A DNA stretch of 64,000 nt, taken from positions 139,288-203,287 of the forward strand of contig CAYLPP010000003.1 of NCBI GenBank assembly GCA_964385615.1. The letters are read 5' to 3'. A program made the translations under genes and the position numbers. Source of the DNA: an uncultured bacterium. Its GTDB lineage: Bacteria; Omnitrophota; Omnitrophia; Omnitrophales; Aquincolibacteriaceae. This document shows positions 23,505 to 26,500 of this stretch, piece after piece. The notes beneath the pieces are model-generated. The model ran no database searches. It saw nothing but the letters and a program-made list of their open reading frames with translations, and was not told where the DNA came from. Each line of letters begins with the position of its first letter. Positions within the stretch are counted from its first letter, which is position 1.

Positions 23505-26500
23505 TTAAAACCGGGTGGAGTTACGTTTTAAAAATTTCAAAAAAGGATTATCACTTTGATCTACCGTCAAAAACGCTGGGCTTTCCTGAAATTTCCCAGC
23601 ATCATAGTTATTATCCCAAGAATGATACGTAAGTACTTTAGGGGAATAAATCAAACCAGATGCGATTCTAAATGGGTTCAGCGTGGAAGAAAGATTCGGA
23701 ACCGCATCTCTATAGTCAATTTTATAGCTAACGGATCCTACACCAGCTAAATTGGCACTTAAAGTCCCCCGAATTTTTGACACAGTCGTAGCATCATATT
23801 CCACGCCTGAAATATTTGTAAGCATCTGCCCTCTTTTAGCCACTTCAAGTAAAGCATTACTTAAAATAACCGTTCCCTGGCTATGAGCATCAACAGCTAT
23901 GCGATTTCCATATTTATTCAAAAAAACCAAATCGTCCGCCACTTGTCTTGAAACCGCACTAGGAATAATCGGTCCCAAAAACTTATCCAAAGCAAATTCG
24001 GTTAAATCTGCCAATATTCCCGAACTAGGATTGTATCTCACCGCAACCCCCGTACTTGCCCGGCGAATTGCATCATTCCGAGAGGTGCTAACTCCATTAA
24101 CTTTATAGAATTGAATATTAGCAAGTATTGCACGTAATTGATTAGGATCTTTTATTTGAGATTGCAGATCCTGCAAGCTCTTAAAATGGCGCCCATCCGG
24201 GAGATAAATCTCCGATCCTTGCTTAAAAAGAAACTCCTGAATCCCTAAAATAGGGAAAAGAGCGACCTGCCCTATCTTTTGCAATAGACTAGCTTGACCA
24301 TTTGGGCCTGAAGCTGTCGGATTAAAATTTCCAATTGTTTCAATAACAGATCCGACTTTATTCGCCGCGATTTTAAGAATATTAAAATTCCCACCGTCCA
24401 AATCAACAATTTTGAATAAACTATTTGCCGTATTGGAAATCTGGTAAGCAATTTTAACGCCTCCCGCTACTACTGTCTCAAAAAAAGCAGCGGTACCGGA
24501 AGTGTTGAAGTTAATTTTTTCAACAACCGCAGTAATTGGATTATTAACTAATATGGATTTAATGGCTCCGCCGGCGTCTTTCAGGAACTTTGTAACGCCA
24601 TTCTTTAAATCGTCAAAGAAGCCGAAATTTGCCTGCTGGCCGGTGGGCGGACCGTTATTGCCGGAAGCTCCAATTCCCAGGGCATTATTGATATTTTTTG
24701 CAGCATATGAAGCAACCTGGCTTCCAACCGCTTCTATGCCGACATTGGCGACTGTGCTTAAAACGCTTTTCCAGAATTCGCTCATTTTGCTTTTCTGAAT
24801 CTGCTGATCCACTTTCTGTTCAACAAGATTCAATGCGAATTTCTTCAGCGTATTAGCCACCAGCTGTGTAAACCCGCCAACCGAACTTAACCCCTTAGTC
24901 GCTCCGCTAATTAAATTTTTATAGCCAACAAGAGGATTAATCTGTTCCTTCAAGCCGTTAATAAAAGCCTGCTGAAGGTTTTGAGGTTTAAACGCCTGGA
25001 ATATTTTCTGAAGACTGCTTCCAAGATTACTTAAAGCGCTGGATATATTGTTGACCGCGCTTTGAAGAAGATTGCTTCCAAAAGTAGCCACGCTTTGCCC
25101 AAATGAGGAAATCGCCCCGCCCAAGCCGGAAGATAACCCGCCTATCACATTGCCGATCCCAGAAATGACTGTCCCGACGACCTGTATGATAGCGCCAATC
25201 ACGGCTTGAATCGCGCTGAAGACGACCTGAAGGATGGCGTTAAGAATCGCCCCGATAATTTGGCCGATCACCGGGATAAATATCAGAACAACCTGAATTA
25301 CAACCTGAAGTGCCGTCATCGCCCAGTATTTAAACAAGCCCTTAAAATCACCGCGCTCCGCGTAGTGATAAGAATTGATAATAAAGTTAAAAGGCTGATT
25401 CAAAATTCCGGAAATGAAATTCCCAACGGTTTTACCGAAGATAGCGACTGCCACTTTATTAATGGTCGCCACGATCTTTTCGATCAGCTTAATTACCGGC
25501 CTGAGAACTTCGACAAAGAAATGAACGATTTTCTTGAATAGCTTGCTGAACCAGCCGGCCCCCTTAACCTTTAAAAGGTCTGACGAAGCCAGATCGTTTT
25601 CAGGATTAAATCGGAATACCTGGGTGCCGAAACGGTAAAACCGCATCGCGTCAGAATCGTCTAAAATCGGAAGATTCAAGGCCTGCAACTGCGCCGCCGT
25701 CAAAAACACAAACCCGGTAAACAACGCGCCGAATTCCGTTTCTGAAAGCTGTTGATCAACACCGTTTTCGCGGAAAGAAACCGTTCCCCCGCTGATCTGC
25801 ACCAGTTCGACAAAACGAGTTGCCGTATCGTTTGGATCGGCAGCGTTTTCCTTAATTAAAACGGTAATCGGTTCATTGAGAGACGCAAGCGTATCGGAAA
25901 GTTCCGTGTAACTCTGCGAAACTTTATGAAGACGCGTTCCAGTTTGAACAAGCGCGAAACCAAACCATTTGGCTCGGAATTCCGCGATTGACTTAGTGGT
26001 GGTGTGACCATTCTCAAGGAAGGTCACGGTCGTATCCGTGATCGCGGTTACGACAACGTAATGGCGCTCTTCAATATTTACGATCACCGGCAGACCACTG
26101 ACAGTCACGAGACGAACCAGGTCTTCCCAGCTTAACTTAAAGCCCTGAATTCCCGCGTTATTCACCGCAGCCACGGTTTTCAAGTTATAGGCTGAAAACT
26201 GGAGGTTTCCGGTAAATTCGGGAGAAATGACCCCCGTAAGAATATCGACGAAGAGCGCTTCGGTCGTCAATTCGGGGAGGCTGGGAGCAGTTCCAAAAAT
26301 ACTTAGAATCATTTCCTGCACGGAGTGCATGGCCGACTGACCAAAATGAATATCTTCATCAATCAAGTCCATAAGTCTGGACTTAATCTTATCTAGATCG
26401 GCTGAGGTCAACTCCGCCATACTGAAAGCGGTATCCGCTTTGAGAAGTTTTAAAAGGTTCTCGAATTGCGGATTCAACGTTCCATTCGCGAATCCGAAAA

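Follow-up and report, generated by a model that had tools for sequence, protein, structure and literature searches.

A cutinase-like hydrolase domain at the C-terminus of a giant Omnitrophota protein: a candidate polymorphic-toxin effector module with a putative exported immunity partner

Introduction

Polymorphic toxins tipped with a lipase and paired with a periplasmic immunity protein are a known principle. According to the parts of two reports considered here, the periplasm is the site of action of the Tle phospholipases, and the immunity protein Tli3 is a lipoprotein of the outer membrane (PMC13133936, PMC9860674). Alpha/beta-hydrolase domains that end polymorphic toxins, RHS proteins among them, have also been described as Tox-ABhydrolase-1, -2 and -3, with predicted attack on lipids (Zhang et al. 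2012, PMC3482391). In Omnitrophota, excerpts of two preprints describe giant "Dockerin-type" proteins that have C-terminal C39-like domains and transmembrane (TM) anchors (West-Roberts et al. 2023 preprint; 2026 complete-genome preprint), and extracellular glycoside hydrolases have been reported, in the literature excerpts at hand, to be encoded beside such giant genes and linked with cell-wall attack. Here we analyse a 64,000-nucleotide stretch of DNA ("the window"; contig CAYLPP010000003.1 of assembly GCA_964385615.1, positions 139,288 to 203,287) from an uncultured bacterium of the Omnitrophales (Aquincolibacteriaceae), and in particular the C-terminus of a giant protein that it encodes and the small gene that follows.

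We propose that this C-terminus is probably the effector module of a polymorphic toxin, in which a membrane-acting cutinase-like lipase is accompanied by a cognate exported immunity protein. Judging by sequence, the hydrolase domain would belong to an uncatalogued family of polymorphic-toxin esterases/lipases, its assignment as a lipase rather than another esterase being a prediction.

Results

An alpha/beta-hydrolase family that single-sequence searches miss

A preliminary description of this DNA, made from its letters, had noticed an AHSQG motif near the C-terminus of an encoded protein without naming the strand, and had proposed that it forms the nucleophile elbow of an alpha/beta-hydrolase, to be checked by looking for Asp and His triad partners in a structure model. 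The motif is real. It lies in the segment RIAVDAHSQGTVILSNALLEVAKRG (aa 8044-8068, window 23829-23903, minus strand) of a single giant open reading frame (ORF; Table 1), and the plus strand of 23508-24400 has no open frame, its reading being full of stops. Searches with this one sequence came back empty: the last 199-349 aa gave nothing against Pfam, NCBIfam, PADLOC or PDB, the domain has no Pfam match even at E <= 10 and no NCBIfam model match, and the last 264 aa, used as query in a word-indexed homologue search, retrieved no match. The single-sequence AlphaFold2 (AF2) model is likewise poor (predicted local distance difference test score, pLDDT, 36.6). Such results would be expected of a chance AHSQG motif without any hydrolase domain around it, an explanation that we regard as refuted, since the domain belongs to an 87-member family with invariant catalytic residues and yields a confident alpha/beta-hydrolase model once the family is taken into account.

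The relatives came from a HMMER scan that ran exhaustively over 1.84 billion cluster representatives (E <= 1e-3); all 87 match query residues ~60-232. The family profile in turn matches aa 7958-8142 with an E of 6e-56 and has no other match in the six-frame translation of the window; the word-indexed search, when run with the family alignment, returned two proteins. Across an alignment of 28 family sequences (A1) the invariant columns are Gly24, Asp53, Ser95, Asp153 and His181, which correspond to aa 7980, 8009, 8051, 8109 and 8137. Among 68 near-full representatives, Gly7980, Asp8009, Ser8051 and Asp8109 are each conserved in 68/68 and the Gly of the nucleophile elbow in 67/68, while the position of His8137 is occupied by His in 63/68, with alignment gaps in the remaining five. 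The resulting signature reads N-G...NPxxG..D..E...HSQG...D...NP...H. The segment from the NP motif to the His is hydrophobic in the family (mean Kyte-Doolittle value 0.70 vs -0.01 for the whole domain), and because the stretch between acid and His has this character throughout, an interfacial enzyme would fit.

Family hosts include Omnitrophota, Gammaproteobacteria (Steroidobacteraceae), Planctomycetota and the Candidate Phyla Radiation (CPR; Woesebacteria). Source annotations of the members are restricted to hypothetical, RHS repeat-associated, VCBS or FG-GAP proteins, and some relatives give sub-threshold matches to DUF900, Tle3, DUF676 and Abhydrolase_6. One member, P0064 (2,818 aa), from a metagenome-assembled genome (MAG) annotated as Candidatus Woesebacteria (CPR), has SHSEG in place of HSQG, and its domain closes an FG-GAP-like repeat protein.

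A predicted cutinase-like fold with a Ser-Asp-His triad

With the 28-sequence alignment as input, AF2 returned a confident model (pLDDT 85, predicted template modelling score 0.81) in which the domain is predicted to form a parallel beta-sheet core flanked by helices, similar to known alpha/beta-hydrolases. The order of elements is beta-(NG)-alpha-beta-alpha-alpha-beta-Ser-alpha-beta-alpha-beta-Asp...His. Its N-terminal part comprises the strand FYKV, an Asn-Gly, the strand AVR, two helices, the strand IAVDAH, Ser95 and a helix, and its C-terminal part the strand ISGVEYD, a helix, the strand VSYK, Asp153, a hydrophobic helical insert and His181. The nucleophile elbow is formed by strand 89-94, A-H-S95-Q-G and helix 96-110.

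Foldseek matched the model to cutinases at probability 1.0 and also to the Legionella phospholipase PlaB. Overall, cutinases, lipases and phospholipases come out as the nearest structures, with polysaccharide esterases of carbohydrate esterase family 5 (CE5) and LysB also among the closest folds. When the family profile was compared with the PDB, a CE5 cutinase ranked first (E 0.0056) and acetyl xylan esterases and lipases came next, the Ser elbow being the aligned part in every case. An hhalign comparison of the family profile with the single sequence of the 1cex cutinase paired Ser95 with Ser120, covering the elbow only and at a probability of 4%. From the family, the AF2 model, the Foldseek neighbours and the profile matches, we therefore take the domain to be a cutinase-like minimal alpha/beta-hydrolase, as the earlier proposal of this fold with a Ser elbow had anticipated. 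The model also supplies plausible triad partners: Asp8109, after a late strand, and His8137, in the following loop, occupy canonical topological positions in the canonical order of nucleophile, acid and His, and both are invariant or nearly so in the family. Asn-Gly7980 is a candidate oxyanion loop.

Two further groups of proteins have a similar elbow motif. Five loci (L009, L012, L013, L017 and L025), from Photobacterium lutimaris and from Actinomycetota and Pseudomonadales MAGs, encode a related standalone family with the signature WFFINGxxT...NxTxGxxxDxxEC...HSQGT...NExDxVARLG...GHxxNxHYL; these have weak matches (DUF676 at 22.9 bits in L017), and an exported neighbour was not seen in these loci. 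Two others (L015 and L016), retrieved by a peptide pattern, encode large proteins with (I/V)SHSQGTVI or AHSQGTVI after multiple TM segments and no Pfam match, and these are probably another uncharacterised alpha/beta-hydrolase group.

The domain caps several toxin scaffolds

The preliminary description regarded the domain as a candidate toxin tip, and its distribution elsewhere supports this. Between the end of the hydrolase and the C-terminus of the host protein there are, in the median, 2 residues, and the domain takes this position on a two-partner secretion (TPS) plus Fil_haemagg, CdiA-like scaffold (P0060), on Tc-like SpvB-TcdB-RHS scaffolds (P0023, P0051) and on RHS scaffolds (P0038, L006, L010, L021-L026), further hosts being short fragments that start at the Rhs DPxGL motif and standalone signal-peptide proteins. 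The family thus shares a C-terminal domain across unrelated N-terminal scaffolds, the giant adhesin included, as polymorphic toxins do. Upstream features were counted in the 41 members that have at least 200 aa before the domain. DPxG occurs within 450 aa upstream in 34/41, and in 27/41 a TM-like hydrophobic segment lies between DPxG and the domain. A literature search for cutinase-type Rhs toxins gave no match.

The giant protein itself begins with a hydrophobic signal or anchor sequence and carries RHS/YD repeats, many LamG_3 and F5/8-type-C (discoidin) domains, one dockerin and one ILEI domain. This ~7,500-aa part is the putative delivery and adhesion scaffold. RHS_repeat Pfam hits are present, a YD-repeat consensus pattern matches once, and DPxG[LWMF] is absent from the whole 8,175 aa. 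Because the protein lacks the Rhs core motif PxxxxDPxGL (aspartyl autoprotease), a classical Rhs cage plus toxin was considered and rejected.

The carbohydrate-binding modules of this scaffold (LamG_3, F5/8-C, dockerin) and the CE5 and LysB folds among the structural neighbours are what a carbohydrate or cell-wall esterase would lead one to expect. Such an enzyme, of the CE5 acetyl-xylan esterase or LysB type, would strip acyl or acetyl groups or lipid-glycan esters in the envelope of prey or host, and would thereby contribute to the degradation of cell walls that has been proposed as a role of giant proteins in predatory Omnitrophota. The second gene downstream encodes a secreted GH39-like enzyme, the literature excerpts tie Omnitrophota giants and flanking glycoside hydrolases to cell-wall attack, and possible self-harm would account for an exported partner. 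We nevertheless consider this explanation unlikely: most other members of the family sit on classical antibacterial toxin scaffolds, after a membrane-type hydrophobic segment, the segment beside the active site is hydrophobic, and deacetylation alone is rarely lethal enough to need a dedicated immunity protein in almost every locus. A membrane-acting lipase remains our preferred assignment.

A conserved terminal module behind a C39-like domain

The preliminary description placed the toxin tip in the last ~300 aa, behind a membrane segment and a release-peptidase-like domain. The hydrolase is indeed C-terminal and the membrane segment is present upstream of it, but the swappable unit is larger, a conserved module of ~680 aa that consists of an amphipathic helix, the hydrophobic segment, a ~330-aa linker rich in Gly, Ser, Asn and Ala, and the hydrolase. 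A standalone secreted protein of 653 aa (P0001) aligns with the module from end to end, over ~640 aa, at 31% identity (E 2e-60). In locus L004, in a MAG with 63% GC, the similarity extends further: besides hydrophobic segment, linker and hydrolase it takes in the C39-like domain. The linker (24153-25127, minus strand, aa ~7636-7960) is more than low-complexity sequence and has no family match; a G-P-P-T and an amphipathic ...D.LK..GGAI.S... motif in it are common to L004, P0001 and P0002. In locus L018 (1-3807), P0001, with signal peptide, hydrophobic segment, linker and hydrolase, is tandemly duplicated, and a 108-aa lipoprotein gene lies between the copies, overlapping the stop codon of the first.

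The hydrophobic segment reaches Kyte-Doolittle values of 1.6-2.5 in 19-residue windows, and its length suits ~3 membrane-spanning helices. A region of ~70 hydrophobic residues that is conserved in P0001 and L004 could in principle be the toxin itself, a Gly/Gln-rich, membrane-depolarising pore former like the Rhs toxin Tse5, with the hydrolase as an accessory in targeting or maturation. TM-like segments precede the domain in the 27/41 members mentioned above, and Rhs pore-forming toxins are documented in the part of the literature considered (PMC10684867). However, the remaining 14/41 members with enough upstream sequence lack the segment, the catalytic residues of the hydrolase are near-absolutely conserved, and immunity to such pore formers is usually an integral membrane protein, whereas the neighbours here are mostly soluble lipoproteins or secreted proteins. 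We therefore hold a pore-forming toxin to be very improbable and the hydrolase to be the probable effector, with the hydrophobic segment as its putative membrane-insertion or anchoring element.

The release-peptidase-like domain is present as a C39-like domain (PF03412, E 7e-6, 26.3 bits vs a cutoff of 22, aa 7279-7362, profile positions 45-127). In comparison with the C39 domain of 7n87, the His is kept (HYVVV ~ HFVVI) and the Asp position is a Glu (LENG). There are three Cys in the whole 8,175-aa protein and none in its last 1000 aa; with no Cys in the domain, it is not a canonical C39 cysteine peptidase, and the sequence suggests that it is degenerate or non-canonical. This part of the earlier description therefore stands for the presence of the domain and fails for a canonical peptidase. 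A Ser occurs in a conserved H-F-[GA]-Q-S-A motif near the position expected for the catalytic Cys. Further downstream, RFVELVQISGGTVSFRENGVDQQLSETEFGALFTGFVFL (~25650-25850, minus strand, aa ~7395-7440) looks by eye as if the C-terminal half of the C39-like domain were repeated in degenerate form (compare HYVVVTAITDTTVTFLENGHTTTKSIAEFRAKWFGFALV).

Double-glycine leaders follow the consensus LSxxELxxIxGG, with L at -12, an acidic residue at -8, L at -7, I or V at -4, G at -2 and G or A at -1. A site of this type, LASSDLLKVKGA followed by G, occurs ~115 aa downstream of the C39-like domain, precisely where the conserved module starts. The pattern L-x3-[DE]-L-x2-[IVL]-x-G-[GAS] is found once in the 8,175 aa, vs 0.029 occurrences expected from shuffles, and L004 has a counterpart, LGTAELLKVKGA followed by GFFKKLFKKI. 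The helix after the site resembles the amphipathic KxxFKKI-type helix that follows the Rhs DPxG in L010, L022, L023 and L026. Because the site fits the consensus and an Rhs-like amphipathic helix comes next, we infer that the module is released after Ala7492, where cleavage is predicted. Cleavage could be catalysed by the C39-like domain, through some non-canonical activity, or by a peptidase acting in trans.

An exported neighbour and a GC trough

The preliminary description also mentioned a downstream partner with a signal peptide. A 181-aa ORF with a Sec-type signal peptide does follow, its ATG 4 nucleotides (nt) past the stop of the giant gene, and exported neighbours recur across the family. 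In related loci, among them those collected by a search with a 5-sequence family alignment, the next gene encodes a lipoprotein (L006, L007, L018, L021, L022, L023/24, L026), a signal-peptide protein (L002/L003) or a membrane-anchored protein (L005/L019, L014). Such neighbours occur in 10 other distinct loci, and in most of the related loci the next gene is of this kind; the exported genes often overlap the stop codon of the toxin gene. Several unrelated families are represented among these downstream proteins. Searches of Pfam, NCBIfam and PADLOC assigned the 181-aa protein to no family, and homology between it and the other downstream proteins was considered and dropped, as all-vs-all BLASTP and a profile of the L007, L008, L022 and L023 proteins gave no significant similarity. 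By analogy with these loci, we infer that it is the cognate periplasmic immunity protein. The candidate immunity neighbours in the family, mostly periplasmic proteins or lipoproteins, would follow the pattern of envelope-acting effectors as exemplified by Tle/Tli.

Base composition changes at the same place. GC is 0.37-0.41 over 23000-24500, which covers the hydrolase and the next gene, vs 0.49-0.52 in the flanks, and the 181-aa ORF shares a trough of 0.37-0.44 with the hydrolase region. A fall in GC over both hydrolase and partner is what an acquired toxin/immunity cassette would show. No second copy of the hydrolase domain or of the partner was found in the window, and thus no orphan toxin/immunity cassette. 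The Omnitrophota Rhs locus L006, in turn, is a classic orphan toxin/immunity array: its region 5335-5970 holds 74 aa from the C-terminal part of the hydrolase as an orphan fragment (GDPVG...NPIK...H) and, after it, another lipoprotein gene, a paralogue of the first (E 1.5e-6).

The giant gene is set among housekeeping genes in what is a chromosomal window, and no secretion or killing apparatus is encoded nearby. These surroundings, together with the orphan sequence of the 181-aa protein and the lack of an adjacent small exported gene in L004, would suit a non-toxin function, in which the domain is a housekeeping or self-directed esterase or an anchor of a giant adhesin, for example in remodelling the cell's own envelope, and the 181-aa ORF is unrelated to it. 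We judge this most improbable, as the domain is spread over TPS/CdiA-like, Tc-like and Rhs toxin scaffolds, L006 holds an orphan toxin fragment with immunity-like repeats, the GC trough coincides exactly with the hydrolase and partner genes, and the partner gene begins 4 nt after the stop.

Surroundings of the giant gene

Features of the locus are collected in Table 1. Upstream of the giant gene the window encodes mreB, PBP2, rodA, a ferritin and a P-type ATPase, and downstream the GH39-like protein, a GATase, a fumarase and haem-biosynthesis genes. Among the matches listed for PBP2 (about 63-67% identity), the named relatives carry the label Candidatus Omnitrophica or Omnitrophota, apart from one labelled Verrucomicrobiae, in agreement with an Omnitrophota host. 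The GH39-like protein (560 aa, signal peptide MDRRAVLLLAFFLLV, 21211-22893, minus strand) is encoded directly after the candidate immunity gene and on the same strand. Two other ORFs on the minus strand combine different domains: HEM4 (uroporphyrinogen-III synthase) and URO-D (uroporphyrinogen decarboxylase) are fused in a single 645-aa ORF (13197-15134), and a 677-aa protein (6056-8089) combines thioredoxin/AhpC-like and NHL-repeat domains.

Table 1 Coordinates of the giant ORF, its terminal features and the neighbouring gene in the window.
Feature	Residues (aa)	Window position	Strand	Basis or remark
Giant ORF, 8,175 aa		23505..48032	-	single ORF containing the AHSQG motif
C39-like domain	~7220-7365	25938..26375	-	Pfam PF03412
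Double-glycine-leader-type motif LASSDLLKVKGA	7481-7492	25557..25592	-	pattern search; before GWFSKLFKKI
Conserved C-terminal module	7493-8175	23508..25556	-	alignment with P0001 and L004
Hydrophobic Gln/Gly-studded segment	7566-7635	25128..25337	-	Kyte-Doolittle
Cutinase-like minimal alpha/beta-hydrolase domain	7958-8142	23607..24161	-	profile and model
Ser codon, predicted nucleophile in AHSQG	8051	23880..23882	-	family conservation
Asp codon, predicted triad acid, 5 residues past last core strand	8109	23706..23708	-	conservation and AF2
His codon, predicted triad base	8137	23622..23624	-	family conservation
181-aa ORF, Sec-type signal peptide, candidate periplasmic immunity protein		22956..23501	-	N-terminus MRYFVLFICILLLSPQKGMA followed by LP

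Discussion

Our data suggest the following scheme for the action of the giant protein. It would be exported through its N-terminal signal, and its carbohydrate-binding filament would touch the target. The terminal module would then probably be released from the ~7,500-aa scaffold at the double-glycine-type site after Ala7492, and the hydrophobic segment would probably insert into, or anchor at, a membrane. There, Ser8051, Asp8109 and His8137 would cleave an ester bond of the cell envelope. Acyl esters of (phospho)lipids in the membrane are the most likely target, and they would be reached from the periplasmic side or from outside, as by Tle effectors of type VI secretion systems (T6SS). The 181-aa protein would shield the producer's periplasm while the Sec-exported toxin crosses or re-enters its own envelope.

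Several points weigh against this scheme. Regarding the enzyme, curated family models miss the domain and some relatives match them only below threshold; a second invariant Asp (8009) lies outside the predicted Ser-Asp-His set; and, in the model, His8137 sits where confidence drops (block 181-190, pLDDT 69). Lipid is not the sole plausible substrate, because the closest folds include CE5 and LysB. Regarding release and delivery, the sequence of the Cys-less C39-like domain weakens the proposed release step, and the window encodes no secretion system for cell-to-cell delivery: a type I secretion system, a T6SS and a TPS partner were searched for within it and none was found. Regarding immunity, the 181-aa protein shows no detectable sequence similarity to other downstream proteins, in L004, the closest full-module homologue, the next gene encodes phosphoenolpyruvate carboxykinase (PEPCK), and no exported neighbour is seen in two Rhs loci of Planctomycetota, L010 and L011. 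With these points taken into account, we still regard a membrane-acting lipase module with a cognate exported antidote as the probable function of the locus.

What is new is the toxin-domain family itself, which is of cutinase size and is not covered by Pfam, NCBIfam or PADLOC models, and the concrete candidate effector activity and antidote that it offers for a giant Omnitrophota protein, a class whose biochemistry is unresolved in the literature excerpts considered. The combination of a Cys-less C39-like domain with an internal double-glycine site suggests a mode of release unlike that of Rhs or CdiA toxins. A wider reading, which we put forward tentatively and consider rather doubtful, is that Omnitrophota giants include a new kind of polymorphic-toxin scaffold, in which a filament presents the ~680-aa module to prey or host, the module is released at the double-glycine site via the Cys-less C39-like domain, inserts into a membrane and attacks it as a lipase. 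If this were true, release by a Cys-less C39-like domain at a double-glycine site would replace the Rhs aspartyl autoprotease, and the giant genes of ultra-small Omnitrophota episymbionts would be tied to contact-dependent killing, with a new toxin/immunity family.

Comparison with known systems

The giant protein resembles those described for Omnitrophota in the excerpts of the two preprints, since it likewise combines dockerin and adhesion domains with a C39-like domain and a TM segment near the C-terminus, and has a glycoside hydrolase nearby. It differs in two respects, each as far as those passages go: the reported giants have SecA-related domains after the TM anchor, of which none was seen here, and the giant-protein passages searched contain no terminal esterase toxin, double-glycine site or immunity-type neighbour.

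With the Tle1-Tle4 lipases of T6SS the hydrolase shares the serine alpha/beta-hydrolase fold, the periplasmic action that we propose and, as a candidate, the adjacent gene for a periplasmic or lipoprotein Tli, here 4 nt downstream. It is much smaller (~185 aa vs >400 aa), the window protein has no DUF2235 or Tle3 match (7/28 relatives match PF24322 Tle3 weakly, best E 9e-4), and, unlike in Tle loci, vgrG, PAAR and other T6SS genes are absent from the window. Also unlike Tle, the hydrolase forms the C-terminal end of larger scaffolds of the Rhs, TPS, Tc or giant-adhesin type. The Tox-ABhydrolase domains are reported to have immunity partners of cytoplasmic type (SUKH, Imm66, Imm69), whereas the neighbours here have signal peptides or are lipoproteins. 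Tox-ABhydrolase-1 is DUF2235, which does not match our domain; Tox-ABhydrolase-2 and -3, which have no model in Pfam, were compared by description only.

Lipases of Geobacillus and Bacillus with an A-x-S-x-G motif (2Z5G) have an identical AHSQG, and the PDB-profile match to them covers the elbow only (E ~1). At ~390 aa, with lids and zinc sites, they are not close relatives. Cutinases and other CE5 enzymes (4psc, 4oyl, 1cex, 1bs9) have the same minimal five-stranded, lid-less core of ~185-200 aa, with the acid straight after the last strand and the His in the next loop, and their nucleophile motif, GYSQG vs AHSQG here, is likewise x-S-Q-G. The identity to cutinases is only 12-15% and the Pfam Cutinase model PF01083 does not match; judged by its sequence, the domain falls outside the cutinase family. 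Asp and His are 28 aa apart, with a hydrophobic helical insert between them, vs 13 aa in cutinase, and the invariant Asp8009 and the NPxxG motif are additional. Cutinases are stabilised by disulfides and the domain here has no cysteines; cutinases are free secreted enzymes, while this domain is fused to toxin scaffolds. In proposed function, the closest described systems are Tle/Tli and the Tox-ABhydrolase toxins, and in structure the cutinases.

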